DNA of 62,586 bases from Acidimicrobiia bacterium (GTDB lineage Bacteria; Actinomycetota; Acidimicrobiia; IMCC26256; DASPTH01): assembly GCA_036502765.1 (NCBI GenBank), contig DASXXX010000047.1, positions 1-62,586 of the forward strand, written 5' to 3'. The notes under the pieces were generated by a model, which was given only the letters and a program-made list of their open reading frames with translations, ran no database searches and was not told the DNA's origin. The stretch's first letter is position 1. Every line of letters starts with the position of its first letter. Positions 3,281 through 29,526 of the stretch are shown here, in pieces. Made by a program: the position numbers and the translations under genes.

Positions 3281-4389
3281 GCGTGGCCCTGCTCGAAGGC
3301 TCGGAAGCGATCGCCGACGCCATGGTCGCGGCCGGATGCCGCTTCTTCAGCGGCTACCCGATGACGCCGTTCACCGAGGTGCTCGAGCACATGGCGACCA
3401 AGCTGCCCGAGGTGGGTGGCACGTGCATGAACGCCGAGAGCGAGCTCGAGGCCGTCGGCATGGCGTGGGGTGCGGCGGCCACCGGCACGCCCAGCGCCAC
3501 CGGTTCGACGGGCCAGGGGCTCTCGCTGATGCAGGAATCGCTCAGCGAGGCGACGCTCGCCCGCATCCCCCTGGTGGTGCTCAACATGGCCCGGGCGCAG
3601 GGCGACTACTGGCAGGCGACCCGCGGACCCGGTCACGGCGATTCGCGCATGCCCGTCCTCGCACCGATGGACGTGCCCGAGGCGATCACGCTGACCCAGC
3701 TCGCGTTCGAGCTCGCATACCGGTGGCGCAACCCGGTGCTCCTCTTCGGCGACTACTACCTCGCGCACACCGCGAGCTCGGTCGACGTCACGCGCGTCGA
3801 GCACGCGCCGCTTCGGGCCGACGACTGGGCGCTGACCGGGGCCACGAGCGGCACCGGTAACGCCCGACTCGTGTCGCCGCTCGGCTCCGGCGAGTACGGG
3901 GCCGAGAGCAGCTATGCCGACCACCTCGTGCAGTGCGCGCACGCGACCGAGGCGATGCTCGCCGGCATCGAACCTCTCGCCGAAACCGGGTTCTGCGACG
4001 ACGCCGATGTCGTCGTCGTGGCGTTCGGCACGCCGGCGAAGTACGTGCGCGCCGCGGTGACGCGCCTCCGCGCCGAGGGCGCGAGGATCGGATACGTGCG
4101 ACCGATCACCTTGCTCCCGTTCCCGAGCGAGATCCTGGCGCGCGCGGCGCGCGGCGCGCGTACCGTGGCGGTGTACGAGAACAGCCAGGGACAGATGGTC
4201 GACGACGTCCGCCTCGCGCTCGAGGGTGCCGTCCCGGTGCAGTTCATCGGGCGGCTGAGCCTCGACAGCTCCGGCTTCGGCATCGCCCCCGATCTCGACG
4301 GCGACTACCTGCGCGACCGACTCCTGGATGTCTTGAATGTGGATGTCTTGAATGTGGATGTCTTGAATGTGGAGGTCCTCGATGACTGA
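3277..4389 (+). CDS. 2-oxoacid:ferredoxin oxidoreductase, alpha subunit
   Basis: GTG 3277 overlaps the delta stop (GTGA). FSGYPMTPFTEVLEHMA and NAESELEAVGMAWGAAATG are typical of alpha subunits. C-terminus carries the DVLNV x3 repeat. Confidence 0.8.
   Translation: MSVALLEGSEAIADAMVAAGCRFFSGYPMTPFTEVLEHMATKLPEVGGTCMNAESELEAVGMAWGAAATGTPSATGSTGQGLSLMQESLSEATLARIPLVVLNMARAQGDYWQATRGPGHGDSRMPVLAPMDVPEAITLTQLAFELAYRWRNPVLLFGDYYLAHTASSVDVTRVEHAPLRADDWALTGATSGTGNARLVSPLGSGEYGAESSYADHLVQCAHATEAMLAGIEPLAETGFCDDADVVVVAFGTPAKYVRAAVTRLRAEGARIGYVRPITLLPFPSEILARAARGARTVAVYENSQGQMVDDVRLALEGAVPVQFIGRLSLDSSGFGIAPDLDGDYLRDRLLDVLNVDVLNVDVLNVEVLDD
4327..4371. repeat. 15-bp perfect tandem repeat x3 (plus a diverged 4th copy at 4372..4386)
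   Basis: GATGTCTTGAATGTG repeated three times, then GAGGTCCTCGATGAC. In frame in the alpha subunit (DVLNV DVLNV DVLNV EVLDD). Visibly AT-richer than the surroundings. Confidence 0.95.
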
Positions 4390-5170
4390 TCGCTTCCTCC
4401 CGACTGCGCTGCCGCCGGTCGAGGCCGCGCACCTGGTCGACGACTTCGGGCCGTCGCTCCTCGACGTCGCCGAACACAGCCTCTGCCCTGGCTGCGGCGA
4501 GCCGGTCGCGCTGCGCGCCATCCTCGAGGCCATCGAGGACGTCGGTGCCGCGCAACGCACGATCGGCGTCATCGGGATCGGTTGCTACACCGCGTTCGCG
4601 AACTCCCTCGACATCGAGGTGCTCCAAGCCCTGCACGGGCGGGCGCCGTCGTTGGCGACCGGGGCGAAGCGGGCCCGACCCGAGAACCTCGTCATCACGT
4701 TGCAGGGCGACGGCGACATGGTGAACGAAGGCCTCCAGGAGGTGCTCCACACCGCGGCACGCGGGGAGCGCGTCACCTGCTTCATGCTCGACAACGGCGT
4801 GTTCGGCGAGACCGGTGGGCACATGACCGCGACCACCGCGCTCGGCCAGCGCACGAAGAACACGCTCGACGGTCGTGACGCCGAGCAGCACGGCTTCCCG
4901 ATCCGGGTGAGCAACCTCATCGCCGAGCTCGACGGGGCGGCCTACGTCGCGCGCGGCGCGGTGAACAACGCGGGCAACGTGGCGCGCACCAAGAAGATGA
5001 TCCGGAGCGCGCTCGAAATCCAGGAGGCGGGGCTCGGCTTCTCGTTCGTCGAGATCCTGACCATGTGCCCGACCGGTTGGTTCGTCGACACGCCCGATGC
5101 GCCCGACTACCTCACCAGCACACTCGCGCCCGTGCACGCGCCCGGCGTGTTGAAGGACGTGACCTTGTGA
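4382..5170 (+). CDS. 2-oxoacid:ferredoxin oxidoreductase, beta subunit (ThDP-binding)
   Basis: ATG 4382 overlaps the alpha stop. CPGCGE, GIGCYT and LQGDGDMVNEG motifs. In-frame ATG 4367 inside the repeat is an alternative start. Confidence 0.8.
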   Translation: MTDRFLPTALPPVEAAHLVDDFGPSLLDVAEHSLCPGCGEPVALRAILEAIEDVGAAQRTIGVIGIGCYTAFANSLDIEVLQALHGRAPSLATGAKRARPENLVITLQGDGDMVNEGLQEVLHTAARGERVTCFMLDNGVFGETGGHMTATTALGQRTKNTLDGRDAEQHGFPIRVSNLIAELDGAAYVARGAVNNAGNVARTKKMIRSALEIQEAGLGFSFVEILTMCPTGWFVDTPDAPDYLTSTLAPVHAPGVLKDVTL

Positions 5171-6168
5171 CGACGACGGTAGTGGTGGCGTTCCCCTGGA
5201 ACGCTGACGACGCGATGCTCGCGCCGCTGCGGGAGCGCTTCCCCGACCTGGAGCTGGTCGCCCAGCCGTACCTCGGCCGCTTCGGTCATCACCTCCCCGA
5301 CCAGGACGACGAGCTCACTGACGACGCGCGCGCGGTGTGGTCGCGCGCCGAGGCGACGCTGGCGCTCGACCTTCCCGCGCCCATCGCCGAGCTCGCGCCC
5401 GAGCTGCGCTGGGTGCAGGCGATCGGCGCCGGCATCGACCACCTCGCCGATGCCGGCCTGCCCGACACGGTGACGATCACCAACGCGGCCGGTGTCGCCG
5501 CCGCCCCCATCGCCGAATTCGCGATGAGCCGCCTCTTGTCGGTGTGGAAGCGCCTGCCCGAGATCGACGACGAGCAGGCGCAGCACGAGTGGAAGCCCAA
5601 GTTCGGTCGCACCGTCGAGGGGCTGACCCTCGGCGTCATCGGTCTGGGCGCCATCGGCACCGCGGTCGCGCAACGGGCCCGCGGGTTCGGCATGTACCTC
5701 ATCGGGACCCGCCGGAGCTACAAGGAAGGTCAGGACCATCCCGCGGTCGACGAGCTGCGCGGCACCGGCGATCTGCACGAGGTGCTCGGTCGCTGCGACG
5801 CGGTCGTGGTGAGCGCGCCGGGCACCGCCGAGACTGAGAACCTCTTCGACGCCGCCGCGTTCGCGGCCATGCGTGAGGGCGCGCTGTTCTGCAATGTGGG
5901 CCGCGGCTCGCTGGTCGACGAGGCCGCGCTGATCGCGGCACTCGAGTCGGGCCACCTCGGCGGCGCCATCCTGGACGTGACGCGCGAGGAGCCGCTGCCG
6001 GCCGGCGACCCGCTCTGGTCGGCGCCGAACATCTACATCTCCCCGCACTGCTCGGCCGCGCAGGACCGCTACACCGAGACGCTCCTCGCGCTGTTCGCCG
6101 ACAACCTCGAGCGCTACACCCACGGCCTAGGGCTGCGAAACGTCGTCGATCGGCAGGCCGGCTACTGA
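5167..6168 (+). CDS. D-isomer-specific 2-hydroxyacid dehydrogenase
   Basis: GTG 5167 overlaps the beta stop (GTGA). NAD fold GVIGLGAIGTAVAQRA, NVGRGSLVDE and SPH motifs. Track ORF 5065..6168 trimmed. Confidence 0.8.
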   Translation: MTTTVVVAFPWNADDAMLAPLRERFPDLELVAQPYLGRFGHHLPDQDDELTDDARAVWSRAEATLALDLPAPIAELAPELRWVQAIGAGIDHLADAGLPDTVTITNAAGVAAAPIAEFAMSRLLSVWKRLPEIDDEQAQHEWKPKFGRTVEGLTLGVIGLGAIGTAVAQRARGFGMYLIGTRRSYKEGQDHPAVDELRGTGDLHEVLGRCDAVVVSAPGTAETENLFDAAAFAAMREGALFCNVGRGSLVDEAALIAALESGHLGGAILDVTREEPLPAGDPLWSAPNIYISPHCSAAQDRYTETLLALFADNLERYTHGLGLRNVVDRQAGY

Positions 6169-7436: not shown

Positions 7437-7469
7437 GCCGCCGATTCAACCACCGGACCGAGCAATGGG

Positions 7470-9022: not shown

Positions 9023-9044
9023 GGGGCGGCAGCCTACGAGGGCG

Positions 9045-9658: not shown

Positions 9659-10726
9659 TCAGACGCCGCGCTTCGGGCCGCGTGGCGGCGTCTTGCGCTT
9701 CTTCGGTGGTGGCGGGGTGATGGGGTTCCCGTCGTCGTCCTTGCGGGCCCGGCTCGGTGCCACCCGCGGCGGTTCCCCGGGCATCTTCGGGTACACGGGC
9801 GGCCACGGCGCGTCCTCGAGTCCCGACTCGATGTCGCGGTCGTACATCTCGAGCAGCGGGGTGAGCACCTGCGGGCTGTCGGCGATGTCGGCCCACGGAT
9901 CACCGCGCGACTCGACGCGGTCGGGCACGGTGAGCACCGTGCACGCCTCGGGGTCGATGTCGTCGAGCTCGTCCCAGTGGAACGGCGTCGACACCTCTGC
10001 CGCGGGGCGCGCCCGGATCGACCACGCGCCGAACACCGTCTTGTGCGGCGCGTTCTGGTTGAAGTCGACGAAGATGCGGTCGCCGCGTTCTTCCTTCCAC
10101 CACGCGTCGGTGATCGCCTCAGGCCGTCGGCGCGCCAGCTCACGCGCCACCGCCACCGCCGCCCGGCGGACCTCGATCGGCGTCCAGCGCGGTTCGAGGC
10201 GCGTGTACACGTGGATGCCGCGGTTGCCGGTGGTCTTGGGCCAGCCGCGGATGCCCACGTCGTCGAGCAACCCCTTGAGCTCGCGTGCCGCCTCCCGCAC
10301 CTCGTCGAACCCGAGCCCCGGCTGCGGGTCGAGGTCGATGCGCAGCTCGTCGGCGTGGTCGTCGTCGCGGGCGAGGTTGGGCCACACGTGGAACCCCAGG
10401 CAACCGAGGTTCACCGCCCACACGATGTGCGCGAGGTCGGCCGCGACCAACGCCTCCGACATGGTGCCGTTGGGCGTGCTCACGACCGAGGTCTCCAGCC
10501 ACTCGGGACGCTCCTTCGGCACCCGCTTCTGGAAGAAGTTGGAGCCGTCGACGCCGTTCGGGAAGCGCTGCATGAGGACCGGTCGGCCGCGGATCGCGGT
10601 CATCAACGGGAGTTCGACGCGGCGGTAGAAGTCGACGACGTCGAGCTTGGTGAGGCCCGGCTCCGGGAACATCATCTTGTCGGGGCTGGTGACGCTCACG
10701 ACGCGTCCGGCGACTTCGAGGTCCAC
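9659..10726 (-). CDS. LigD polymerase/primase domain protein (stand-alone NHEJ polymerase)
   Basis: Track ORF trimmed to GTG 10726 (VDLEVAGRVVSVTSPDKMMFP). RFPNG, HVWPN, TTGNRGIHVY and FVDFNQN motifs of LigD-Pol. Pro/Lys-rich basic C-terminal tail. Confidence 0.8.
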   Translation of the reverse strand: MDLEVAGRVVSVTSPDKMMFPEPGLTKLDVVDFYRRVELPLMTAIRGRPVLMQRFPNGVDGSNFFQKRVPKERPEWLETSVVSTPNGTMSEALVAADLAHIVWAVNLGCLGFHVWPNLARDDDHADELRIDLDPQPGLGFDEVREAARELKGLLDDVGIRGWPKTTGNRGIHVYTRLEPRWTPIEVRRAAVAVARELARRRPEAITDAWWKEERGDRIFVDFNQNAPHKTVFGAWSIRARPAAEVSTPFHWDELDDIDPEACTVLTVPDRVESRGDPWADIADSPQVLTPLLEMYDRDIESGLEDAPWPPVYPKMPGEPPRVAPSRARKDDDGNPITPPPPKKRKTPPRGPKRGV

Positions 10727-11723: not shown

Positions 11724-13286
11724 GTGGTCGACGGAGCGCTGACGCAGGGCACGCTCCGGTCGCTCCGCCAGGCCCGTCGACGCCACTACCTGCGCGAGGG
11801 CGACTGGGTCGACTCGCTCTACAAGGCCTATGTGGTCGGCATCCTGGCCGCGCTCGGGTTGTTCTACGGCAGCGTCGCCCTGAGCGCCGACTTCGACGCC
11901 GCCGCGCTCCACGACGTGGAACGACACGGCGCCGCCCTCCTCGGGCTCGCGGTCGCGGTGCTGGTGCTCCTGGGTCTCCGTTCGGGCGCGCACGGCGGAC
12001 CCCTGGCGCCCGAGTCGGCCGACATCACGTTCCTCCTCCTCGCACCTGTGGCGCGGACCGAGGTGCTGCGACCGCTCGCGGTCCGGCAACTCCGCGGCGT
12101 CGTGCTCGTCCCCGCGGTGGGCGGCGCGGTCGCCGGCAGCATCGCCTCCCGTCCGCTCGGCGGCGACCGGATCGAGTGGCTGCTCGCGGGCGCGGCCTTC
12201 GGCGTGTTGGCGTCGTTGGCGGTCTGGGGATCGGCGCTGGTCGCGTCGAGCGTGCGGCTGCGGGCGCGTGATGCGAACGTGGTCGGCGCCGCCGTCGTGG
12301 TCTGGGCCGCGATCGACGTGGCCGCCGGGTATGCCTCTTCCCCGACCGCACAGCTCGGGCGGGTCGCGCTGCTGCCGCTCACGTGGTCGGCGCTCGCGAT
12401 CGTCGGGGTGGTGCTGCCGCTGGTGCTCGTGGGTGTCGGTCTGGCCCGGGTCGGACACACGTCGCTCGAGCAACTGCGGGACCGGGCGCGTCTCGTGGGT
12501 GAGCTGCGGTTCGCGGCCACGCTCCAGGACATGCGCTCGGTCATCGTCCTGCACCGGGAGCTCGCGCAGGAGCTGCCGCGCACGACGCCGTGGTGGCACG
12601 CCCGGGGCAGCCGGGGCGGACCGGCCTGGCAGCGCGACTGGCGTGGGCTGGCGCGGTGGCCGATGAGCCGCGTCGCGCGCGCGGTGGCCTTCGGGGTCGT
12701 CGTGGCGCTGGCCGGCGTCGGGCTCTGGCACGGCGTGGACGCGCTCGTGCTCCTCGCCGGGCTCGCACTGTTCCTCCTCGGTGTCGACGCGGTCGAGGGC
12801 CTGGCGCAGGAGACCGACCACCCGGAACGATCCGAGCAGTACCCGGTGGTCTGGGGCGAGCTCGTGCTCTCCCATCTCCTCGCGCCCGCAGTGGTCCTGT
12901 TCGGGTTCGCGGTCGCAGCCGCGCTCGCGATCGGTGCCGTCACGGGGAGCGTCGATGCGCTGGCCGTGGCCGCGATCACGGTGGTGCCCGCCACGCTGGC
13001 CGGGGTGGCCGGCGCCGGGCTGTCGGTGGTGATGGGAGCGCCGCCGCCGACCCTCTACCTCGACTTCGGCTTCCCGGAGCTCACCACCTTGTGGTTGGTG
13101 CTGCGCCAGGTGCTCGGGCCGCTGCTCGTCATCGCCGCGTTCGTCCCTCTCGCGGTCGGTGACAACGCGTATGGCGACGCGAGCGCCTCCGCGCTCGGCA
13201 CGACGCTCACGTTCGCGTTCGTGCCCCTGGTGCTCGCGGTACTGGCTGCAGTCTGGATGCGATCACGAACGGCGGTCGTGCGATGA
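11724..13286 (+). CDS. polytopic membrane protein of unknown function, coupled to an ABC ATPase
   Basis: 520 aa with many hydrophobic segments. Its stop overlaps the ATG of the ATPase gene (13283). Resembles the actinobacterial DUF membrane partners of orphan ABC ATPases (family identity not verifiable here). Confidence 0.6.
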   Translation: MVDGALTQGTLRSLRQARRRHYLREGDWVDSLYKAYVVGILAALGLFYGSVALSADFDAAALHDVERHGAALLGLAVAVLVLLGLRSGAHGGPLAPESADITFLLLAPVARTEVLRPLAVRQLRGVVLVPAVGGAVAGSIASRPLGGDRIEWLLAGAAFGVLASLAVWGSALVASSVRLRARDANVVGAAVVVWAAIDVAAGYASSPTAQLGRVALLPLTWSALAIVGVVLPLVLVGVGLARVGHTSLEQLRDRARLVGELRFAATLQDMRSVIVLHRELAQELPRTTPWWHARGSRGGPAWQRDWRGLARWPMSRVARAVAFGVVVALAGVGLWHGVDALVLLAGLALFLLGVDAVEGLAQETDHPERSEQYPVVWGELVLSHLLAPAVVLFGFAVAAALAIGAVTGSVDALAVAAITVVPATLAGVAGAGLSVVMGAPPPTLYLDFGFPELTTLWLVLRQVLGPLLVIAAFVPLAVGDNAYGDASASALGTTLTFAFVPLVLAVLAAVWMRSRTAVVR

Positions 13287-13960
13287 GCAGCCCGGCCGTC
13301 GAGCTCCGCGGGGTCACGAAGGCCTACGCCGACCGCGTCGCCCTCGACGACATCTCGTTGGAGCTCACGCGCGGGGAGCTCGTCGCGCTCGTCGGCGCCA
13401 ACGGCGCGGGGAAGTCGACGCTCCTGCAACTCGCCGTGGGGCTGCTCGAACCCACGAGCGGCGACGTGCTCATCGAGGGAACCGCCGCGGGATCGCTCGA
13501 CGCCCGTCGCTCGCTGTCGTACATCTCCGACCAACCGTCGCTGTACGACGACCTCACCGTGAACGAGCACATCGAGTACGTGTCGCGCCTGCACGGCGGA
13601 CCGGCGCGTCCCGAATCGGCCGACGAGCTCCTCGACCTCCTCAACCTCACCCCCCGAGCCGACGACCTGCCCGCGCGCTTCAGCCGCGGGCTGCGCCAGA
13701 AGACCGCGATCGCGCTCGCGCTGGTGCGCCCGTTCTCGGTGCTGCTCGTCGACGAACCGTTCGTGGGGCTCGACCCCGCCGGTCAGGACGCACTCGCCGA
13801 GCTGTTGACCGCGGCAGCCGACGCCGGGTGCGCGGTGATGGTGGCGACGCACCAGCTCGCGTTCCTCGAGCGCGCGACACGGTGCGTGGCGCTGCGCGAC
13901 GGTGCCGTCGCCTACCGCGGACCCGTCGACCGCGCCGTCATCGATCCCCTACTCGATTGA
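13283..13960 (+). CDS. ABC transporter ATP-binding protein
   Basis: Walker A GANGAGKST, signature FSRGLRQK, Walker B VLLVDEP. Confidence 0.9.
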   Translation: MSSPAVELRGVTKAYADRVALDDISLELTRGELVALVGANGAGKSTLLQLAVGLLEPTSGDVLIEGTAAGSLDARRSLSYISDQPSLYDDLTVNEHIEYVSRLHGGPARPESADELLDLLNLTPRADDLPARFSRGLRQKTAIALALVRPFSVLLVDEPFVGLDPAGQDALAELLTAAADAGCAVMVATHQLAFLERATRCVALRDGAVAYRGPVDRAVIDPLLD

Positions 13961-13995
13961 TGGCGTTCGATTGATGGCGTTCGACTGATGGCCGA
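13954..13995. repeat. 14-bp tandem repeat x3 spanning a stop/start junction
   Basis: CGATTGATGGCGTT, CGATTGATGGCGTT, CGACTGATGGCCGA. Each copy carries TGATG (stop overlapping start). Confidence 0.9.
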
Positions 13996-14731
13996 CGCTC
14001 GTACGCTCGGGCTGCTCGTCCTCCACGCCAAATGCGTGCGCGCCGCCCAGGAGCCCGCGTGGGGTGCGTGGGAGGACGACGTCCATCTCCCCGCACTCTG
14101 CGACGGCTCTGATTCGGCCGACGGCGCGTGGGCGGCGACCCGCTTCGAGCTCACCGCGCGACCCGAACCGGGCACGCCGGGCATCGGGTTCACGCACGTG
14201 ACCATCCTCGAGCTCGACGATCCCGACGTCGCCGCGCAGGCCGCGCGCGTCCTCGCGGTCGACGACGCGCTGCGCGCCGACGGCCGCATGCATCCCGCGC
14301 ACGCGACCATCGCCGCCGACGCGTTCGTCGCGCACGGTCGCTACGGGAGCAAGGCCGAGCCGTCGTCGGCGCGCACGGGGCACATCCTCACCCACGTGCT
14401 GTGCACCGATCCCACGCGTGTCGCGGAATGGGACGAGTGGTACGACGAGGTGCACGTGCCCGACATGCTCTCGTGCGGCGCCTTCTCGGCGATGTCGCGG
14501 TGGCGGCGCGTGACGCCCGTACAAGTCGGCGCGAACCACCTCACGCTCTACGACGTCGTCACCCCGACGGTCGACGAGGCGGTGGCGCGCTCGGCGGCGA
14601 CGCTGGCCGAGGTCGTCGCCGCGGGCCGCAAGCACGAGTGCCACACCGGCGGCCTCACGGTCACCCTGCGCCCGACCGGTCGCCACGGCGCCGCCGGAGT
14701 GCGTCGCGCTACTGCGCGAACAGCTTCTTGA
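13988..14731 (+). CDS. hypothetical protein with two related halves (possible dimeric alpha/beta-barrel-like repeats)
   Basis: 247 aa. Both halves contain W-(E/D)-(D/E)-x-VH-(L/V)-P (AWGAWEDDVHLP; VAEWDEWYDEVHVPDML). The opposite-strand ORF is an Arg-rich shadow. Confidence 0.5.
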   Translation: MADARTLGLLVLHAKCVRAAQEPAWGAWEDDVHLPALCDGSDSADGAWAATRFELTARPEPGTPGIGFTHVTILELDDPDVAAQAARVLAVDDALRADGRMHPAHATIAADAFVAHGRYGSKAEPSSARTGHILTHVLCTDPTRVAEWDEWYDEVHVPDMLSCGAFSAMSRWRRVTPVQVGANHLTLYDVVTPTVDEAVARSAATLAEVVAAGRKHECHTGGLTVTLRPTGRHGAAGVRRATARTAS

Positions 14732-14844: not shown

Positions 14845-16458
14845 ATGAGCACGACCACGATGACCGGTGGCCAGGCGCTGGTCGCCCAGCTCGTCCGCGA
14901 GGGCGTCACGCACGTCTTCGGGCTCCCGGGCGACCAGACGATGCACGCGCTCGACGCGTTCTACGACGAACCGTCGATCGCGTTCGTCACCACCCGCCAC
15001 GAGCAGGGCACCACGTACCTGGCCGACGGCTACGCACGCGGCGGTGGACGGCCGGGCGTGGCCTTCGTCGTCCCCGGCGTCGGCCTCTACAACGCCGGCG
15101 CAGGCCTGGCGACCGCCTACGCGTCCTCCTCCCCCGTCGTGCTGATCGCCGGACAGGTGAATCGAGCGGGCATCGGCAAGCACCTCGGCCTGCTGCACGA
15201 GATCGACGACCAGCTCGACATAGTGCGCCCGATCACCGCGTGGCAACGGCGTGCATTGCAGGCCGGCGAGATCGCCGAGACCGTGCACGAAGCGTTCGTG
15301 CGCGTGCAACGTGGGCGCCGCCAACCGGTCGAGATCGAGATGCCGCCGGAAGCGTTCTCCGAAACCTTCTCCCTCGACGGCGAGATCACGCTGTGCCCAC
15401 CGGCCGAGAGCGTGCGCGAGGGCGCCGATCCCGACGAGATCGCGCGCGCCGCCGACCTCCTCGCGGGTGCCGAGCGCCCGGTCATCTGGGTCGGCGGCGG
15501 CGTGGTCCTCGGTGACGCGACCGCGGAGCTGGCCGAGCTGGCCGAGTTCCTCCAGGCCGCGGTGGTCACCACCCGTCAGGGCAAAGGAGGGTTCGACGCC
15601 CGCCATCCGCTCTACGCCGGCACGGCCTGGGTGAACAAGCGCCTCCAGCCCCTGCTCGACGACGCCGACGTCGTGCTCGCGGTCGGGACGCACCTCATCG
15701 GTCATGCGCTCCCTGCCGGCACGCCCGTCGTGCACGTCGACGTCGACCGGGCCGAGATCGGCATCCACCGTGTCGACGCGCTGCCCGTCGTCGGCGACGC
15801 CGCACCCACGCTCGCCGCGCTCCTCGCCGAGCTGCGCACGCGCCGCGATCCCGCGGCCGACCGCGGTGCGGAGATCACCGCGTTCCGCGCCACTGTCGAC
15901 GCGTCGTTGCGCACGGTGGGACCGCAGGCGCTGATGGTCGACCAGCTGCGCGCCGCCATCCCCGACGACGGCGTGCTGGTGCCGTGCACCACCACGATGG
16001 GCTACATGAGCCACATGCTCTACCCCGCGTACGGGCCGCGCACCTACCTGTCGACCTCCTACATGGGCACGCTCGGCTGGGGCTTCCCGGCCGCGCTCGG
16101 CGTGAAGGTGGCGCGCCCCGACACGCCCGTGGTGTGCGCGACCGGCGACGGCGGCTTCCTGTTCGCCGCCACCGAGCTCGCCACCGCGGTGCAGTACGGC
16201 ATCAACACCGTCACCGTGGTCTACAACGACGACGCGTACGGCAACTCGAACCGCGACCAGCGCGAGCGCTTCGGCGGTCGCGAGATCGGCACCGCGCTGC
16301 GCAACCCCGACTTCGTGAAGTTCGCGGAGTCGTTCGGGGCCGACGCCACGCGCATCACCAAGGGCGGCGACGTCGGTCCCGCGCTGCGCGAAGCTCTCGG
16401 CAACGACCGTCCCACCGTCATCGAGGTGCCCATGGACCGCCTCCCAGCTCCCTTCTAG
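14845..16458 (+). CDS. thiamine-diphosphate-dependent enzyme (acetolactate synthase / benzoylformate decarboxylase-like)
   Basis: 537 aa. N-terminal GGQALVAQLVREGVTHVFGLPG, HEQG, and ThDP motif GDGGFLFAATELATAVQYGINTVTVVYNDDAYG. Confidence 0.85.
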   Translation: MSTTTMTGGQALVAQLVREGVTHVFGLPGDQTMHALDAFYDEPSIAFVTTRHEQGTTYLADGYARGGGRPGVAFVVPGVGLYNAGAGLATAYASSSPVVLIAGQVNRAGIGKHLGLLHEIDDQLDIVRPITAWQRRALQAGEIAETVHEAFVRVQRGRRQPVEIEMPPEAFSETFSLDGEITLCPPAESVREGADPDEIARAADLLAGAERPVIWVGGGVVLGDATAELAELAEFLQAAVVTTRQGKGGFDARHPLYAGTAWVNKRLQPLLDDADVVLAVGTHLIGHALPAGTPVVHVDVDRAEIGIHRVDALPVVGDAAPTLAALLAELRTRRDPAADRGAEITAFRATVDASLRTVGPQALMVDQLRAAIPDDGVLVPCTTTMGYMSHMLYPAYGPRTYLSTSYMGTLGWGFPAALGVKVARPDTPVVCATGDGGFLFAATELATAVQYGINTVTVVYNDDAYGNSNRDQRERFGGREIGTALRNPDFVKFAESFGADATRITKGGDVGPALREALGNDRPTVIEVPMDRLPAPF

Positions 16459-16495
16459 ATGGAGCCCTTCTGATGGAGTCGTTCTAGCGATGGAC
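16450..16495. repeat. ~15-bp degenerate tandem repeat x3 spanning a stop/start junction
   Basis: CCCTTCTAGATGGAG, CCCTTCTGATGGAG, TCGTTCTAGCGATGGAC. Each copy is the end of the upstream gene plus a stop plus ATGGA. Confidence 0.85.
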
Positions 16496-17269
16496 GTCAA
16501 GCGGCAAGCGGGCGCGCTGGGCGCGGTGGTGACGGGCGTCGACATCGCCGACATCGACGACGCCACGTTCGCCGCGGTGCACGAAGCGCTGCTCGAGCAC
16601 CTGGTGCTCTGCATCAAGGGCCAGGCCCACGCCACCCCCGACGACCAGGTTGCGTTCACCGCCCGCTGGGGACGCATCGAGCCGCACCCGTACGTACCGC
16701 CGATCGACGGTCATCCCGAGATCATCGAGATCTACGACCCCAACCCGATCACGGTCACGTGGCACTCCGACTTCACCTACGCCAAGCAACCGCCGTCGGT
16801 CAGCCTCCTGCTCGGGCGGATCATCCCGCCCGTGGGTGGCGACACGATGTTCTCCAACGGCTACCTCGCGTACGAGAGTCTGTCCGACGGCCTGCGCAGC
16901 ACGGTCGATTCGCTGCGCGCGGTGCACTACGCGACGCAGCTCGCGATCGACAGCGGCATGCCCGACGACGAGATCGTCAACTCGCACCCGGCGGCGTGCA
17001 CGCACCCCGAGACCGGTCGACGCGCACTGTTCGTCAACGACAACTACACGAAGCACTTCGACCGGTGGTCGGTGGACGACAGCCAACCCCTGCTCGACCT
17101 GCTGTACGCGCAGTTCGACAAGCCCGAGCACACGTTCCGTCACCGGTGGGAGGAGGGCGACCTCCTCATCTGGGACAACCGCTGTGCGCAGCACTCCGTG
17201 GTCGGCGACACCGACGGTGCGCGCCGCTCCCTCCATCGGACGACAGTTGCAGGAGGACAGCCCGTATGA
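16490..17269 (+). CDS. TauD/TfdA-family Fe(II)/2-oxoglutarate dioxygenase
   Basis: 259 aa. GAVVTGVDI..., WHSDFTY (H-x-D), LLIWDNRCAQH...R pattern. Confidence 0.85.
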   Translation: MDVKRQAGALGAVVTGVDIADIDDATFAAVHEALLEHLVLCIKGQAHATPDDQVAFTARWGRIEPHPYVPPIDGHPEIIEIYDPNPITVTWHSDFTYAKQPPSVSLLLGRIIPPVGGDTMFSNGYLAYESLSDGLRSTVDSLRAVHYATQLAIDSGMPDDEIVNSHPAACTHPETGRRALFVNDNYTKHFDRWSVDDSQPLLDLLYAQFDKPEHTFRHRWEEGDLLIWDNRCAQHSVVGDTDGARRSLHRTTVAGGQPV

Positions 17270-17288
17270 ACGAGCCCGTATGAACGAG
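17261..17288. repeat. 14-bp perfect tandem duplication containing the TauD stop codon
   Basis: CCCGTATGAACGAG x2. Each copy carries ATGA. Confidence 0.95.
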
Positions 17289-17296
17289 GAGGCGAC

Positions 17297-18511
17297 ATGA
17301 CCGACATCCCCTGGATCGTGAGTCTCGACGACCACGTGGTCGAACCTGCAGATGTCTGGACCTCGCGGCTGCCCGCGAAGTACCGCGATGTCGGCCCGCA
17401 CATCGTCATGGCGCCCGCGGGCACACCCGTCCTCGACGGTGGCACCTACCGCGAGGCGCCCGGCACCGATGGGCCCGACGTGGCCTGGTGGTTCTACGAG
17501 GACCAGCAGTACTCGGTGAAGCGCCTCATCGCAGCGGCCGGCTACCCGCCCGAAGAGATCACGTTCGACGGCATCACGTTCGACCAGATGCGCCCGGGCT
17601 GCTGGCAACCCCAGGCCCGCCTCGACGACATGACGATGAACCACGTCGAGGCGTCGCTGTCGTTCCCGAACTACCCGCGCTTCTGCGGCCAGATCTTCCT
17701 GCGCGCCAAGGACAAGGACCTCGCAAAGCTCTGCGTCGAGGCGTACAACGACTGGCAGGTCGACGAGTGGTGCGCGGGGAGCAACGGCCGGCTCATCCCG
17801 CTGTGTCTCGTGCCGCTGTGGGACGCGGAGCTCGCCGCCGCCGAGGTGCGGCGCAACGCCGCCCGCGGGGTGCGCGCGGTCGCGTTCTCCGAGCTCCCGT
17901 CGTGGCTCGGCCTGGCCAGCATCCACTCCGGGTATTGGGAGCCGTTCTTCACCGCGTGTGCCGAGACCGGCACGGTCGTCGCCATGCACATCGGGTCGGG
18001 TACCAAGACCGTGGTGACGTCCGACGACGCGCCCGACGCGGTGCAGGCCACCAACATCTTCGCCAACAGCGCGGTGTCGCTCGTCGACTACCTCTACTCC
18101 GGCATCCTCGTACGCCACCCCGACCTGAAGCTGCTCTACGCCGAAGCGCAGATCGGCTGGATCCCGTTCGTGCTCGAACGCATCGACGACGTGTGGGAAA
18201 CCCACCGGGGCTGGAGCCACAGCCAAGACGCCGTGAGCGAACCGCCGTCGTCGTACTACTACCGCCAGGTCACCAGCTGCTTCTTCAAGGACAGCGTCGG
18301 CCTCGACCTCCTCGACCGCGTCGGACGCCACAACATCGCCTTCGAGACCGACTACCCGCACCAGGACGGCACCTGGCCCAACACCCACCAGGTCGCCAAG
18401 GAGCTCTTCGGCCACCTCGACGACCAGACCGTCTACGACATCGTGCGCGGCAACGCCATCCGTCTCCTCGACCTCCAAGGTCTCGGCGACGGCACGGGTC
18501 CTCGTTCGTAG
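17297..18511 (+). CDS. amidohydrolase-2 (ACMSD-like) family metal-dependent hydrolase/decarboxylase
   Basis: 404 aa. IVSLDDHVVEP at the N-terminus, AMHIGSG, ...NIAFETDYPHQDGTWP near the C-terminus. Confidence 0.8.
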   Translation: MTDIPWIVSLDDHVVEPADVWTSRLPAKYRDVGPHIVMAPAGTPVLDGGTYREAPGTDGPDVAWWFYEDQQYSVKRLIAAAGYPPEEITFDGITFDQMRPGCWQPQARLDDMTMNHVEASLSFPNYPRFCGQIFLRAKDKDLAKLCVEAYNDWQVDEWCAGSNGRLIPLCLVPLWDAELAAAEVRRNAARGVRAVAFSELPSWLGLASIHSGYWEPFFTACAETGTVVAMHIGSGTKTVVTSDDAPDAVQATNIFANSAVSLVDYLYSGILVRHPDLKLLYAEAQIGWIPFVLERIDDVWETHRGWSHSQDAVSEPPSSYYYRQVTSCFFKDSVGLDLLDRVGRHNIAFETDYPHQDGTWPNTHQVAKELFGHLDDQTVYDIVRGNAIRLLDLQGLGDGTGPRS

Positions 18512-24380: not shown

Positions 24381-25378
24381 GTCGTCCCCCTGTCACGCGC
24401 CCGCCATCGTCCCGGTGAATCGCCGTGCGCTCGCTTGAACGCACGGCTGAACGCTTCCTCTGATTCGTAGCCGACGCGACGCGCGATCGGCACGACGCCG
24501 AGCTCGGTGGTGTCGAGCAGCTCCTCGGCGAGGTGCATGCGCCATTCGGTGAGGTACCGGATCGGCGACCGCCCGAGGACCTGGCGGAACCGGTCGTCGA
24601 GCACCGAACGCGACACCGCGACCTCGGCCGCGAGCTCGCCGACCGTCCAGCGGCGCGCGGGATCACCGTGCAGCAACGCGAGCGCGGGCGCGAGGACGGG
24701 GTCGTGCAGCGCCGCGAGCCAACCCTGATCGGCCGCGGGTGCCGACGCGAGGTGGTGCCGCAGCACCTGGATGAGCACCAGCTCGGGCAGTCGCGTCGAA
24801 GCGACGCTCGCGCTCGCATTCGACGGGACGTTCTCGCTCGCGGCGTAGGTGACGCTCGCCCGCACCCAGCCCTTCGCGGCACCGTCGGGCAGTCGCACCA
24901 CGAACGCCGATGGGAAGACCTGCAGTCCGGGCTCGAACAGCGGGTCGTCGGAGACGAGGTATCCGCACACGAGATCGACCGCAGCGCCGCCACCACCGTG
25001 GCGAATCACAGGGAGATCGCTCCAGGGCAGCGGCGCGACGAGTTCGATGATGGGAATGCACGACGCGGGCGACGCACCACCGATCACGTGGTACTCGCCG
25101 TAGGGAAGCACGATCACGTCACCCGACTCGGCCCAGTGCCGTTCGCCGTCTTCGCCCGCGACCCAACAGGTCCCGCGAGCGACGATGTGGAACTGGATCA
25201 CACGAGTCGCGCCCGGATGGAGCTGACCGGCGATGGCCGACAAGGTCGACTCGAACTCGAACGGCTCCGTGAGCTCGGTGCGGAAGAAGATCGCGCCGTC
25301 GAGACGGATCTGTTCGAGGGCGTCGCCGAGGAGCGGTGTCGCGGCTAGGTCTCGCGGTTGCGCGGTCATGGCCGCCAA
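24377..25378 (-). CDS. AraC-family transcriptional regulator with N-terminal cupin domain
   Basis: C-terminal HTH WTVGELAAEVAVSRSVLDDRFRQVLG...IARRVGYESEEAFSRAFKRAHG. Its stop overlaps the SDR start (ATGA). Confidence 0.8.
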   Translation of the reverse strand: MAAMTAQPRDLAATPLLGDALEQIRLDGAIFFRTELTEPFEFESTLSAIAGQLHPGATRVIQFHIVARGTCWVAGEDGERHWAESGDVIVLPYGEYHVIGGASPASCIPIIELVAPLPWSDLPVIRHGGGGAAVDLVCGYLVSDDPLFEPGLQVFPSAFVVRLPDGAAKGWVRASVTYAASENVPSNASASVASTRLPELVLIQVLRHHLASAPAADQGWLAALHDPVLAPALALLHGDPARRWTVGELAAEVAVSRSVLDDRFRQVLGRSPIRYLTEWRMHLAEELLDTTELGVVPIARRVGYESEEAFSRAFKRAHGDSPGRWRARDRGTT

Positions 25379-25452
25379 TCCCTGTCAGCCGGATACTCGT
25401 ACCTGACACTGACCCTAACGACAAAGGAAGCAGCCATGAGCGAGTTCCCCCG

Positions 25453-25836
25453 TTGACCCACGTCGCGCTGACCGTGCGTGACCTGTCCGTGAGCGTCCCC
25501 TGGTACGAGGCGCTCCTCGATTCCGAACCGGTGATCGACGAGGACACCGACCCCGACCTGCACCACACCGTGTACCTCGTCGGCGGCGGGACCCTGATCG
25601 GTCTCCACCAGCACGGCACCCCGGCTCCCGCCGGTGGCTTCAGCGAGTTCCGCGTCGGCCTCGACCACGTGGCGTTCGGCGTGTCCGACCGGACCGAGCT
25701 CGAGAAGTGGGCCGCCCGCCTCGACGAGCTCGGCATCGAGCGCGGTCGCATCAAGGACGCGACCTACGGCTCGGGCGTGAGCTTCCGCGACCCCGACGGC
25801 ATCGCGCTGGAGTTCTTCGCACCTCCCTCCGCGTGA
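25453..25836 (+). CDS. VOC/glyoxalase-family protein (start uncertain; possible homopolymer frameshift)
   Basis: Domain begins LTHVALTVRDLSVSVPWYEALL. The in-frame start is TTG 25453. A better-placed ATG 25436 (GGAAG 5 nt upstream) is out of frame and stops at TGA 25454-25456 after MSEFPR. Confidence 0.65.
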   Translation: MTHVALTVRDLSVSVPWYEALLDSEPVIDEDTDPDLHHTVYLVGGGTLIGLHQHGTPAPAGGFSEFRVGLDHVAFGVSDRTELEKWAARLDELGIERGRIKDATYGSGVSFRDPDGIALEFFAPPSA

Positions 25837-25850
25837 CGGCTTCCGCGTGA

Positions 25851-25884
25851 CGCGTGACGCGTGACCAAGGTCACGCGTCACGCG
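25851..25884. terminator. perfect 16-bp-stem hairpin (terminator-like, no U tract)
   Basis: CGCGTGACGCGTGACC-aa-GGTCACGCGTCACGCG, built from CGCGTGA heptamer repeats. Begins 15 nt after the VOC stop. Confidence 0.55.
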
Positions 25885-25977
25885 CGCGTGGCAGGGGTCA
25901 CGGTGACTTCAGCGGGTCACCGCGGCCGCCGATGCCCTTCGTGCTGGCCGGGCGGGAGCGCAAGGGGCGACACCATC

Positions 25978-26397
25978 ATGTTCAAGCGTCGTGGAGCACG
26001 AGCCGAGGGACAACCCCGCTTCGGGGATCGCCGCAAGGCGAAGCGGCAGTCCGCCGGTTGGGAGGGCCGTTACCGAGTGGTCGACCTCGAGCGTGAGCAC
26101 CTGCACTACGCGGGTGACGACTACGAGGTGTGCCTGCTGACCGATCTCTCGATGGAGGGCGCCGGGCTCCATCTCACCGAGGGCGAGGTGACGGTCGGTG
26201 ACCACATCGAGCTCGATCTGCCGCTCGGCGACAACAAGCGGGCCAGCATCCAGGTGCGCGCCGAAGTTCGGCACGCCACCGCCGACGACGGAGCCCCGCG
26301 TGCCGGGCTCGAGTTCATCGACGTCGGCGATCTCGAACGCGCGCTCCTCTACCGCCTGCTGCGCGACCTGAACCAGAACGTGTCGCAGAGCGCCTGA
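25978..26397 (+). CDS. PilZ-domain protein (putative c-di-GMP receptor)
   Basis: Track ORF trimmed to ATG 25978. RRKAKR (RxxxR) followed by LLTDLSMEGAG (D-x-S-x-x-G). Confidence 0.6.
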   Translation: MFKRRGARAEGQPRFGDRRKAKRQSAGWEGRYRVVDLEREHLHYAGDDYEVCLLTDLSMEGAGLHLTEGEVTVGDHIELDLPLGDNKRASIQVRAEVRHATADDGAPRAGLEFIDVGDLERALLYRLLRDLNQNVSQSA

Positions 26398-26421
26398 AAC
26401 GGGCGCCTGAAACGGGCGCCC
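26390..26421. repeat. 13-bp tandem duplication containing the PilZ stop; also forms a GC hairpin
   Basis: GCGCCTGAAACGG x2, then GCGCCC. GGGCGCC (26401-26407) pairs with GGCGCCC (26415-26421). Confidence 0.85.
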
Positions 26422-26448
26422 GGAGCGCTCCCCCTACAGTGCGGGCCC

Positions 26449-27432
26449 ATGAGCTCGGTCCGTTTCGGTGTCCTCGGCGCGGCGCGCATCACGCCCGCCG
26501 CGATCGTGAAGCCCGCGCGCAACTCGACGGAAGCGGAGGTCGTCGGCGTCGCCGCGCGTGATCGTGCACGGGCCGATGCGTTCGCGTCCAAGCACGGCAT
26601 TCCGCGGGTCTACGACACCTACGCCGACCTGCTCGCCGATCCCGACCTCGATGCCGTCTACAACCCCCTCCCCAACGGACTGCACGCGGAGTGGACGATC
26701 GCGGCGCTCGAAGCCGGCAAGCACGTCCTCTGCGAGAAGCCGTTCACGAACAACGCGGAGGAAGCTGAACAGGTGGCGGCGGTCGCCGACCGCACCGGCC
26801 TCGTGGTGATGGAGGCGTTCCACTACCGCTACCACCCCCTCGCGGCGCGTATGCGCACCCTGGTCGAGAGCGGCGAACTCGGCACGCTCGAGCACGTCGA
26901 GACCGCACTGTGCTTCCCGCTGCCGAAGTTCTCCGACATCCGCTACCAGTACGACCTCGGTGGTGGCGCCACGATGGACGTGGGCAGCTACACCGTCCAC
27001 CTCGCCCGGTTGCTGGGGCTCGAGGAGCCCACGGTCACGTCGGCGACCGCCAAGTTGCGTACACCCGACGTCGATCGGGCGATGACCGCGGAGCTCGCGT
27101 TCCCGAGTGGCCACACCGGCCGCATCACCTGTTCGATGTGGTCGACCGACGTGTTGAAGACGTTCGTGCGCGCCCGTGGCACACGCGGCGAGCTGCACGT
27201 GATCAACCCGACCAGTCCGCAGGTGTGGCACCGCATGCGGGTGAAGGTCGACGGCGTGTCGCGCACCGAGCGCTTCTCCCGCCGCCCGACGTACGAGTAT
27301 CAGCTCGACGCGTTCACCGCCGCCGTGCTGCGCGGCGAACCGACGCTCACTCCGCCGGCCGACTCGATCGCCAACATGCGCGTGCTCGACGCGATCTACG
27401 TCGCCGCGGGCATGCATCCCCGGGGCACGTAG
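26449..27432 (+). CDS. Gfo/Idh/MocA-family oxidoreductase
   Basis: VRFGVLGAARI, ...EKP motif (HVLCEKPF), 327 aa. Confidence 0.85.
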   Translation: MSSVRFGVLGAARITPAAIVKPARNSTEAEVVGVAARDRARADAFASKHGIPRVYDTYADLLADPDLDAVYNPLPNGLHAEWTIAALEAGKHVLCEKPFTNNAEEAEQVAAVADRTGLVVMEAFHYRYHPLAARMRTLVESGELGTLEHVETALCFPLPKFSDIRYQYDLGGGATMDVGSYTVHLARLLGLEEPTVTSATAKLRTPDVDRAMTAELAFPSGHTGRITCSMWSTDVLKTFVRARGTRGELHVINPTSPQVWHRMRVKVDGVSRTERFSRRPTYEYQLDAFTAAVLRGEPTLTPPADSIANMRVLDAIYVAAGMHPRGT

Positions 27433-27444
27433 CGCACCACCACC

Positions 27445-28587
27445 ATGTTCCGACACGCGCGAGTGGGCGCAGTCGTCGTGGTCACCGCCCTTGCGCTCAG
27501 CGCGTGCGGCAGCTCGGGCGACGACGCCGGCCCGACTACGGACACGTCGTCGGTCCCGACGTCGTCGTTCACCACCGGGAGTGCAGCGACGCCGAGCACC
27601 ACCGCGGCCCGGGCGACCGCGCCGCGCACCTACGCGCCCGACGCGTTCGTGGGCGTCGACGCGGCGCTCGAGCAGCGAGTGGCGAACGCCGGGCTCCCGG
27701 GCGGGTACGTCCGCATCGTCGCCGACGACGATGCGGTGATCCACGAGCACGGCGTGGGGAGCGTGACCAGCGCGACGCCGTTGGACATCGCGTCGTCCAG
27801 CAAGTGGCTCACCGCGGCGACGTTCATGACCTTCGTCGACGACCACGCGGTGGGACTCGACGACGACATCGCCCGGTGGCTCCCGGAGTTCGCCGGCTCC
27901 ACGCCGCCGATCACGCCGCGCATGCTCATGGACCACACCTCCGGCGTGCACGACAACTCGTGCCAGAACGGCGGCGTCTCGCTCACCGCGTGCGTGCAGA
28001 CGTTGGCGGTCTCGTCACGGGAGTTCACCCCGGGGAGCGCGTTCTCCTACGGGAACTCGCCGTTGCTCGTGGTCGGTCGTCTGGTCGAGGTGCTCGGCGG
28101 CGCCGACTTCGCGTCGGTCGTGCAGCAGCGGCTCGCGGGGCCGCTGGGCATGTCGTCGACGACGTGGCCGGGCGCGCCCGAGGCTCCGAACCCCGCGTTC
28201 GGCGCGACCACGACCGTCGACGACTACGGACGGTTCGTGGCGATGCTGCTCCACGGGGGCACCGCCGCCGGCCGACGGATCCTCTCGCGCGCCGCGGTCG
28301 ACGAGATGGTGCGCAACCAGGTGGCGGCGTACGACACGACCCACGACTACTCCGTGGGCATCACCGGCATCCCCCGGTACGGGCTCGGGTGCTGGCCCGA
28401 CGTGGTCGGGAGCGACGGTGCCACCGAAGTGGTCAGCGGCAACGGCGGGAAGGGCCTCTACCCCTGGATCGACTTCACCAGCCGGACCTGGGGTGTCGTC
28501 GGGGTCCAGGACGACCGGGGCGCCGACGTCGCGGTGCCCGCATCGCAGCAGGTCGAGGTGGCGGCCCGCACCGCGGTCGACGGCTGA
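27445..28587 (+). CDS. serine hydrolase (beta-lactamase/PBP4-like fold) lipoprotein
   Basis: Lipobox LALSAC, intact SxxK (SSSK), Y-G-N motif (FSYGNSP). Confidence 0.75.
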   Translation: MFRHARVGAVVVVTALALSACGSSGDDAGPTTDTSSVPTSSFTTGSAATPSTTAARATAPRTYAPDAFVGVDAALEQRVANAGLPGGYVRIVADDDAVIHEHGVGSVTSATPLDIASSSKWLTAATFMTFVDDHAVGLDDDIARWLPEFAGSTPPITPRMLMDHTSGVHDNSCQNGGVSLTACVQTLAVSSREFTPGSAFSYGNSPLLVVGRLVEVLGGADFASVVQQRLAGPLGMSSTTWPGAPEAPNPAFGATTTVDDYGRFVAMLLHGGTAAGRRILSRAAVDEMVRNQVAAYDTTHDYSVGITGIPRYGLGCWPDVVGSDGATEVVSGNGGKGLYPWIDFTSRTWGVVGVQDDRGADVAVPASQQVEVAARTAVDG

Positions 28588-28647
28588 CGGGATAGCGTTC
28601 CGGCCAGTTCGCACCATCTGGGCACGACGAGACCGGGGGGAATCGTC

Positions 28648-29493
28648 ATGGCGATCGATCTGCAGGCCCCGCGACGGCGCCGCTCCGGAAGCACCGCCCG
28701 CTGGTGCGCCGTCCTGGTCTTCGGTTTCGTCGTCGGCGCAGCCCTGGTGCTCCTCACCGACTCGGACCCGAACGAGTCCTCGGTCTCTGCGACACCGACC
28801 GCCGCGAACGCCGCGACGCCGACTGCTGGTTCGTCGGCCGCGTCCTCGAACGCTGGTGTCACCGATGTCAACGGTGCGCACGTGCACGGCGTGAAGGCGC
28901 AGGACATCGCGGCCGAGACCCAGCCCGACGTGCCCCTCGACGCGCCGACGCGGGAGCTCGTCGCGCAGCAGCTCACCACTGCGCGCTCGCACGCGATGCA
29001 GTACCCCACCGTCGCCGACGCCACTGCCGCGGGCTATCACCTCGCCGGTGGGTTCGCGCCCGGCAGCGGGGCCCACTACGTGGGTGGGCCGATCACCGGC
29101 GGTGGAACGTTCGACCCCAACGCCGTGCAGTCGCTGATCTATGACGGCACCAATTCCACGTCCAAGATCGTCGGGCTCATGTACTACGCGATGGGTGACG
29201 CACCCGAGGGCTTCGCGGGGCCGAACGACCACTGGCACCGCCACAGCCACGTGTGCATCAAGCCGACTGCCACCGGCATCGACGTGCCGTTCCCCGCCGA
29301 CGCCGAGGTCTCTCAGGCGCAGTGCTCGGAGGTCGGCGGGCTCTTCATGTCGATCACCGGCTACATGGTGCACGCCTGGGTCGTCCCCGGGTGGGAGAGC
29401 CCGCAGGGCGTGTTCTCGCACGAGAACGTCAACGTGCGCTGCGCCGACGGGACCTACAACACCACCGCCAACGGGATGTGCCAGGGCACCTGA
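28648..29493 (+). CDS. membrane-anchored secreted protein of unknown function, His-rich (HWHRHSH)
   Basis: N-terminal RRRR + TM (WCAVLVFGFVVGAALVLL), Ser/Thr/Ala linker, then a globular part with NDHWHRHSHVC, GYMVHAWVVPGW and 4 Cys. Confidence 0.55.
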   Translation: MAIDLQAPRRRRSGSTARWCAVLVFGFVVGAALVLLTDSDPNESSVSATPTAANAATPTAGSSAASSNAGVTDVNGAHVHGVKAQDIAAETQPDVPLDAPTRELVAQQLTTARSHAMQYPTVADATAAGYHLAGGFAPGSGAHYVGGPITGGGTFDPNAVQSLIYDGTNSTSKIVGLMYYAMGDAPEGFAGPNDHWHRHSHVCIKPTATGIDVPFPADAEVSQAQCSEVGGLFMSITGYMVHAWVVPGWESPQGVFSHENVNVRCADGTYNTTANGMCQGT

Positions 29494-29496
29494 GTC

Positions 29497-29526
29497 ACCA
29501 GATCCGCCCCTACCAGATCCGCCGGA
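29497..29526. repeat. 15-bp tandem duplication of a gene 3' end (in-frame second stop)
   Basis: ACCAGATCCGCCCCT / ACCAGATCCGCCGGA. The minus strand reads ...RRIW-TAG-GRIW-TGA. Confidence 0.9.

Follow-up and report, generated by a model that had tools for sequence, protein, structure and literature searches.

Short tandem duplications at stop codons and gene junctions in an Acidimicrobiia genome: a probable outcome of mutation, selection and ribosome hand-over

The DNA considered here, the window, is the 62,586-nucleotide contig C47 (DASXXX010000047.1) of an Acidimicrobiia genome (GCA_036502765.1, hereafter G000). A first-pass annotation, made from the letters alone, had described seven loci in it at which short sequences are tandemly repeated at the junctions between genes, some of them forming chains of very short open reading frames (mini-ORFs) that lead from the stop codon of one gene to the start codon of the next. 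Our analyses show that this pattern is real, that it is both genome-wide and class-wide, and that it looks mainly like the product of mutation and selection, with a phase filter acting on the hand-over of ribosomes between reading frames. We estimate at roughly 0.6 the probability that local duplication of the slippage type, combined with such a selection filter, accounts for the arrays.

In the model we favor, the arrays would be young, locus-specific tandem duplications, mostly of 13-16 bp units in 2-5 copies, copied from local sequence and most likely originating in an error of the slippage or template-switch type. Units of a length not divisible by three would persist only where they shift no reading frame, which is to say where the stop codon lies inside the unit, so that the gene ends in copy one, or where the array lies just past the stop. 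Where a start codon is part of the unit as well, mostly within an ATGA or TGATG overlap, each extra copy would add a ghost start, and only with a period of 2 mod 3 would the ghost frame end on the next start, permitting hand-over by termination-reinitiation. The relay mini-ORFs would then be a by-product permitted by selection and no purpose-built device. The parts of this model that we infer are that slippage is the mechanism, that the mini-ORFs are translated and that copies in the wrong phase carry a fitness cost.

The G000 assembly comprises 4.78 Mb in 460 contigs with 70% G+C. Its genes were called with a self-trained codon-bias caller, not taken from a curated annotation, giving 4919 genes and 91.5% coding sequence. 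Arrays were detected with Tandem Repeats Finder (TRF) and with an exact-repeat scan. For comparison we used five genomes of the same genus (G002, G006, G007, G008, and G014), which are syntenic with the first 34 kb of the window and of which G008 is the nearest relative (86-89% identity to G000). The gene calls near the seven loci are concordant with Pfam domains and with the alignments to these five relatives.

Frequency, position and phase of the arrays

The exact-repeat scan identified ~180 perfect arrays with a period of at least 13 in G000. Among perfect two-copy arrays, 36 had a period of 14 and 73 a period of 15, whereas a second-order Markov genome of equal size had none with a period of at least 14 and only one of period 13. 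Approximately 50 perfect arrays (period at least 10, with a similar number over periods 11-30) enclose the stop codon of a called gene, a number that rises to 148 when the imperfect arrays found by TRF are included. The stop codon is located in copy one in 51 of 52 arrays, as would be expected had the end of the gene been duplicated, and not had an unrelated repeat closed an ORF. We also considered spurious ORF ends as the source of the association with stops, and rejected them based on this position of the stop and on the fact that the genes concerned are mostly longer than 130 amino acids.

The test proposed in the first-pass annotation was whether such repeats are more frequent at gene ends than intergenic length would predict. 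They are: 48 stop-containing arrays were observed compared to 14.6 expected (p=8e-15), the expectation being based on all possible placements of the unit, with stop-containing and purely intergenic placements taken as equally likely. This makes stop-containing arrays about five times denser than those in other intergenic DNA. Conversely, perfect arrays of period 13, 14, 16 or 17, all of which would break a reading frame, are nearly absent from coding sequence (2 inside and 66 outside; n=68), despite the genome being 91.5% coding. Together with the position of the stop in copy one and the enrichment at stops, this gives good support to the suggestion of the first-pass annotation that the repeats are a mutational signature that is tolerated nowhere but at junctions.

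Within the unit, the stop is scattered over offsets 0-14, and such a uniform distribution implies that there is no fixed cut at the stop. Among the 113 in-frame arrays within genes, 24 lie near starts and 28 near stops, so that both protein termini are affected alike, as a tolerance filter predicts. Approximately 40% of the stop-codon arrays are at convergent gene ends, where no downstream start could be disturbed and where there are slightly more arrays per stop, and most stop-codon arrays contain no start codon. The uniform stop offset, the equal pile-up at the two protein termini and the slightly richer convergent ends are our reasons for favoring the filter. Most arrays are short (two copies in 114 of 129, with others reaching 3-5), and the mean length of the partial extra copy, or microhomology, is 4.8 nt compared to 0.4 nt by chance. 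The longest stop-codon arrays in G000 are at C264:690-787 (18 bp, 5.4 copies) and C434:2784-2845 (15 bp, 4.1 copies), and at C257:1455-1482 a single period-14 duplication includes both stops of a convergent gene pair (TCA...TGA within the unit).

Twenty-six arrays copy a start codon, and 20 of these have a period of 2 mod 3 (14, 17, 20, 23, or 11), compared to only 36% of the intergenic and convergent-end stop arrays, on which translation can place no constraint (p=2.5e-5). Expressed as a ratio of 2 mod 3 to 1 mod 3 periods, start-containing arrays stand at 35:7 and intergenic arrays at 64:49 (p=0.002). We attribute this bias to the fact that only a period of 2 mod 3 brings the ghost frame, whether it begins in ATGA or in TGATG, onto the stop of the next copy; with other periods the ghost frame crosses the true start out of frame. 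Complete relays, with every ghost ORF terminating on the start that follows via ATGA or TGATG, are present in 19 of the 26 arrays, and 27 of 40 ghost starts show offsets of +1, -2 or -3. Translational coupling, the other reading offered in the first-pass annotation, is therefore retained as a survival filter seen in the 2 mod 3 bias, and not as a general role of the arrays, given the many that are startless or convergent.

Arrays in the window and in related genomes

The features at the seven loci of the window are as follows.

13953..13992, plus strand: array of period 14, 2.9 copies, at the junction of an ABC-ATPase gene (13283-13960) and the gene at 13988-14731
16450..16487 (junction to 16492), plus strand: imperfect array of period 14/15, between a TPP-enzyme gene (14845-16458) and a TauD-family gene
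17259..17288 (relay to 17300), plus strand: perfect duplication of period 14, two copies, between the end of the TauD-family gene and the start of an amidohydrolase gene
26390..26420, plus strand: perfect duplication of period 13, 2.4 copies, at the PilZ-domain gene 26077-26397
29494..29526, minus strand: imperfect duplication of period 15, at the end of the minus-strand gene 29510-30703
4325..4377, plus strand: in-frame array of period 15, 3.5 copies, near the C-terminus of a 2-oxoacid:ferredoxin oxidoreductase alpha-like gene (3277-4389)
25844..25884, no strand assigned: palindrome of GCGTGAC three times (25844-25865) and the inverted repeat GTCACGC twice (25870-84)

All seven had been put forward as duplications that contain a stop codon at a junction. 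Tandem repeats are present at all seven, and five are local duplications that contain a stop. Stop/start chains of mini-ORFs, which had been proposed at four loci, are present at three, those beginning at 13953, 16450, and 17259. At the first, the upstream stop (TGA, 13958-60) is followed by two ghost ORFs, ATGGCGTTCGAYTGA (MAFD*), at 13960-13974 and 13974-13988, and then by the real ATG at 13988, the successive ghost ORFs and the real start being joined via TGATG. At the second, the stop (TAG, 16456-58) is followed by MEPF* (16459-16473) and MESF* (16473-16487), with the real start at 16490.

At the third relay locus, the stop of the TauD-family gene (TGA, 17267-69) lies within a three-step ATGA relay of MNEPV* (17266-17283), MNEEAT* (17280-17300), and the amidohydrolase start at 17297. 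The ATG that was copied here overlaps the stop and is either fortuitous or an alternative start; it is not a copy of the start at 17297. In G007 the ATG overlapping the stop of the TauD-family gene shares the reading frame of the amidohydrolase gene and is possibly its true start, with an ATGA overlap. Between 17280 and 17300, G000 is one base shorter than G007 (GCGAC vs. GCGCAC), and it is this difference that leaves a separate six-codon ORF ending on the 17297 start.

The remaining two stop-containing duplications form no relay. The array at 26390 includes the stop of the PilZ-domain gene (TGA, 26395-97) with no start codon copied. The repeat at 29497 is weaker, with 12 of 15 bases matching, and the stop inside it is that of the minus-strand gene (TAG, plus-strand CTA at 29510-12), with a TGA at the equivalent position of copy two; the plus-strand stop at 29491-93 lies outside the repeat, which is downstream of it. 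The placement of a stop within this repeat was therefore correct for the minus-strand gene only.

The two other loci are of different kinds. At 4327 the TGA and ATG of the unit, which had been taken for a relay, are out of frame, and the frame of the gene continues across the array, encoding (DVLNV)x3-EVLDD*, to its stop at 4387-4389, with the ATG-TCT-TGA mini-frames falling within coding sequence. The repeat at 4325-4377 is a product of the same duplication process, yet it is neither a stop-codon array nor a relay. The locus at 25831 proved to be the arm of a hairpin and not a junction duplication: a palindrome, TGACGCGTGACC-AA-GGTCACGCGTCA (25840-25890), is situated directly past the stop (25834-36) of the gene 25453-25836 and is conserved in G014, from which G000 differs by one additional GCGTGAC heptamer. 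This palindrome could be a terminator or an operator. Based on their Pfam domains, the genes at the affected junctions of the window are unrelated, ordinary metabolic genes.

Copy number, which the first-pass annotation had suggested comparing between strains, is variable: matching junctions in G000, G008, G007, G014, G002, and G006 have one, two or three copies of the unit, with single-copy ancestors at 13953, 16450, 17259, and 26390. The junction at 13958 is a single TGATG overlap in G007, G002, and G014, and in G008 it has an independent array with three copies and a period of 14, set in another register (MASA*, MDGA*). At 16450 there are three copies in G000, two in G008, and one each in G007 and G014, with the MEPF copy specific to G000 and the MESF* frame common to G000 and G008, one synonymous base apart. 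The 17259 unit is present once in G007 (CCCGTATGAACGAGGAGG), and this duplication is therefore specific to G000; likewise, the 26390 unit is single in G014 (GCGCCTGAACCG). The 29497 array also has two copies in G008, which makes it an older event, and the triplication at 4327 is found in G000 only, with one unit in G002 and G007 and none in G008 and G014. The array copies are thus local, heritable, of differing ages, and recurrent in the lineage.

Arrays were also sought at other positions in the relatives. Within the orthologous 34 kb, G002 has a 4.9-copy, period-14 stop array at a different gene end, and no stop arrays were seen in this region of G007, G006, and G014. In samples of 160-200 kb there were three perfect stop arrays in G015 and two in G008, which are small counts. 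Five other genomes of the same order had zero or one each, or two in the total of 1 Mb compared to 10.9 expected at the G000 rate, and 800 kb from four other Actinomycetota had none compared to 8.7 expected, again small counts. When public metagenome contigs were scanned with exact patterns representing other copy numbers of the 13953 array, no matches were returned. The assemblies of G008, G007, and G002 (e.g., L113-L120) have few contigs, an apparent coding density of only 0.71-0.80, and PolA matches that are split or interrupted by stops, which suggests that uncorrected indel errors make gene-based counts in them unreliable.

As G000 is a fragmented metagenome-assembled genome, the arrays might be thought to be artefacts of assembly or polishing, and one observation of this kind was made in its 460 contigs. 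A three-copy, period-14 stop array and its flanks are present on two contigs as reverse complements (C198:1650-1692 and C205:2427-2469), showing that the assembly is partly redundant and that one array was counted twice. However, assembly errors are blind to reading frames, yet out-of-frame arrays avoid coding sequence and the stop lies in copy one almost without exception. Moreover, two of the window arrays are shared, with divergence, by the independently assembled G008, similar arrays are present in G002, G015, and more than 100 other genomes, and the arrays fit within the length of one sequencing read. An origin of the arrays in such artefacts is barely credible.

The same comparisons bear on the insertion of a mobile small repeat (like the mycobacterial repeats discussed below), the footprint of an element's insertion and excision, or off-target integration of CRISPR spacers. 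Each unit copies adjoining sequence that is unique to its locus, and the relatives hold exactly one unit in place. Furthermore, the copies are directly adjacent, with no foreign insert between them (no X-Y-X), and they reach 3-5 in number. Insertion in any of these forms is accordingly very improbable.

We also considered the arrays to be adaptive, reversible dials, in which copy number would tune reinitiation steps, the spacing of genes or the distance from stop to terminator, in the manner of simple-repeat contingency loci. The variation among close relatives and the independent gain of arrays at one junction in G000 and G008 would be expected of such dials, as would the purely synonymous difference between the MESF mini-ORFs of these two genomes and the GGAG found in some units at ribosome-binding distance from the next start. 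Most arrays, though, have no start codon, those at convergent ends have nothing downstream to tune, only two copies are present in the great majority, and the genes affected have no common theme. A tuning role is in our view distinctly unlikely.

To determine how widely relay-like arrays occur, we surveyed genomes of the class for a motif of three ATGA, each one period apart, with match totals summed by hand from the tables. At period 14 the motif was found in 106 of 401 Acidimicrobiia genomes, with ~429 matches and a maximum of 66 per genome. The other periods gave fewer: 45 genomes and ~63 matches at period 13; 39 of 331 genomes and ~64 matches at period 16, about half of which are not repeats; and 47 of 331 genomes and ~107 matches at period 17. 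Per 100 genomes, these are 16, 107, 19, and 32 matches at periods 13, 14, 16, and 17, respectively. In other Actinomycetota classes the period-14 motif was found in 51 of 370 genomes with 73 matches, many of them due to chance in low-GC genomes. The junction arrays are concentrated in the Acidimicrobiia, without being exclusive to the class, and the periods compatible with a relay stand out.

The maximum of 66 period-14 ATGA relay motif matches is in G358, an Acidimicrobiia genome of family f56. This is ten times the number in G000 and would make G358 the most suitable genome for studying the duplication process. In G292:C5 an identical 36-base string, ATGAGACGAGGTGCAGATGATCTTCGTAGGTGATGA, is present at four places (e.g., 1207308-1207343) and probably belongs to an insertion sequence or a dispersed repeat.

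The excess of arrays at gene ends

Several results weigh against duplication plus filter as the complete explanation. The zone around the stop (to ~+20 nt) is 5-10 times denser in arrays than deep intergenic DNA, which under a plain tolerance filter would be predicted to have no fewer arrays per site. Restricting the comparison to spacers longer than 100 nt, the density per 10 kb falls from 11.4 arrays at the stop to 4.0 at +1..20, 1.9 at +21..70, and 1.1 beyond, a gradient with a rate ratio of 8.6 (p=5e-7). The supply of microhomology is equal, with 2.6-3.8 proto-sites per kb in all compartments, and there is a sharp mode of 14-15 bp in unit length that is also present at convergent ends and in intergenic DNA. 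In addition, the class-wide test of phase is noisy, with a few genomes supplying most of the matches, and the control with the reversed motif is likewise about two-fold higher at period 14 than at period 13. Finally, the gene-based array counts are dependent on our own gene calls.

Two explanations drawn from local sequence were discarded. Richer microhomology at gene ends was rejected based on the proto-site frequencies, which are alike everywhere. Slippage in relation to hairpins in the 45 nt past the array was dropped as weak: this stretch is predicted to be slightly more structured after an array at convergent ends only (-17.2 vs. -15.2 kcal/mol, p=0.007), with no difference in the downstream 45 nt at co-directional ends.

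The excess would be expected if duplication itself were preferential at the 3' ends of genes. RNA polymerase that has lost its ribosome might stall or backtrack past the stop, and ~14 bp, corresponding to the transcription bubble, might be re-copied via collision with the replisome or repair of damage, possibly with the participation of the LigD polymerase and Ku, leaving selection only to trim the products. This process would fit the peak of density at the stop, with its decay over ~40-100 nt even within long spacers, and the densities of period-14 arrays, which per 10 kb of placements are 3.0 for stop-containing, 1.3-1.7 for start-containing, and 0.38 for deep intergenic placements. It would also fit the equal supply of microhomology between compartments and the constancy of the 14-15 bp mode whatever the translation context. 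For the stalling and damage there is a precedent in Escherichia coli, in which loss of transcription-translation coupling stalls RNA polymerase and damages DNA (PMC11297953).

However, the uniform offset of the stop within the unit argues that there is no cut at the stop itself, the in-frame arrays are equal in number near starts and stops, and start-containing arrays are also enriched, so that the excess is not strictly at 3' ends. We therefore regard preferential duplication at gene 3' ends as a tentative and rather unlikely alternative to duplication plus filter. In its more specific form, a duplication process of the Acidimicrobiia that targets gene ends, is triggered at ribosome loss after the stop and copies 14-15 bp, we consider it unlikely.

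Enzymes that might take part in such a process were also examined. A gene for a stand-alone LigD primase-polymerase (Prim-Pol) domain is confirmed in the window at 9659-10726, and its fill-in activity had been suggested as one cause of the repeats. The gene is real, but its region aligns within syntenic blocks of all five relatives, whether these are rich or poor in arrays, and LigD fill-in as the cause gains no support. The presence of flap nucleases is a further point against the 3'-end process: PF02739 matches G000 twice, in PolA, which has the 5' nuclease, and in a FEN-like protein, and 40 of the 41 relatives examined also have it. Judged by whether the genes are present, a lack of flap endonuclease was accordingly rejected as a cause of the arrays.

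Known systems and implications

The statement in the first-pass annotation that the pattern had not been described was too strong, since the interspersed repetitive units of mycobacteria (MIRUs) are a described analogue (PMC12548453). MIRUs insert at start codons and have an internal ORF coupled at -4 nt, and their insertion does little to disturb the expression of the downstream gene (PMC12548453). The likeness consists of tandem units at starts or intercistronic junctions, a short ORF with a stop codon overlapping the start that follows, and a variable copy number, features that are found at 13953, 16450, and 17259 and in the 19 complete relays among the start-copying arrays, where coupling of the mini-ORFs is predicted from their sequence. 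Unlike MIRUs, which are one dispersed and apparently mobile family, the ~50 perfect stop arrays of G000 have unrelated units that match their own flanks. MIRU units are also longer, ~40-100 bp compared to 13-16 bp in G000, in which most arrays duplicate a stop codon only and many are at convergent ends. The G000 arrays amount to a version of the MIRU idea that is produced on site at each locus. Our full-text literature searches brought up no account of duplications that are generated locally where genes meet or at stop codons.

Termination-reinitiation coupling is known at gene overlaps of -4 (ATGA) and -1 (TGATG) nt (PMC10666635, PMC12548453). The relay chains consist of these same overlaps, the stop/start pairs of the relays at 13953, 16450, and 17259, read from their coordinates, overlap or adjoin (-4, -1, or 0 nt), and the ancestral junction in the relatives is itself such an overlap (TGATG at 13958). 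Each case known involves one junction that joins a pair of real genes, whereas here the junction is multiplied, with intervening ORFs of 4-6 codons and no likely function.

Failures in flap processing or replication fidelity also give rise to short duplications with direct repeats on either side, as in yeast rad27/FEN1 mutants and E. coli polA 5'-nuclease mutants. We know of no report of a 14-15 bp mode or of a bias towards gene ends in the rad27 or polA mutator spectra. These duplications resemble the arrays of G000 in being small and tandem with a few bases of microhomology at their ends, and the difference is that G000 and its relatives have both of the 5'-nuclease genes. Tandem direct repeats containing stop codons are also found in the intergenic DNA of Beggiatoaceae, as the TAACTGA repeats proposed to be a regulatory site (PMC4679880). 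There, a single heptamer is repeated at all loci, whereas in G000 the unit is private to each locus.

For genome annotation, the ghost starts and mini-ORFs produced by the arrays can mislead the calling of start sites in Acidimicrobiia. More generally, the hundreds of junction duplications across many genomes constitute a natural mutagenesis screen of translational coupling, one that reveals which spacings and phases between stop and start are tolerated, with periods of 2 mod 3 surviving and the rest being lost. They also show a concrete route by which compact operons of overlapping genes gain spacers and tiny ORFs. Should the excess at gene ends be mutational and not selective, it would point to a new way in which genome instability is tied to transcription and to the termination of translation. 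If a process targeted to gene ends does exist, it would be an unrecognized, translation-linked source of structural mutation and of the birth of intergenic sequence in bacteria, one that would continually generate intergenic DNA, spacers between genes that once overlapped, and mini-ORFs, from among which ribosome hand-over would select the survivors.

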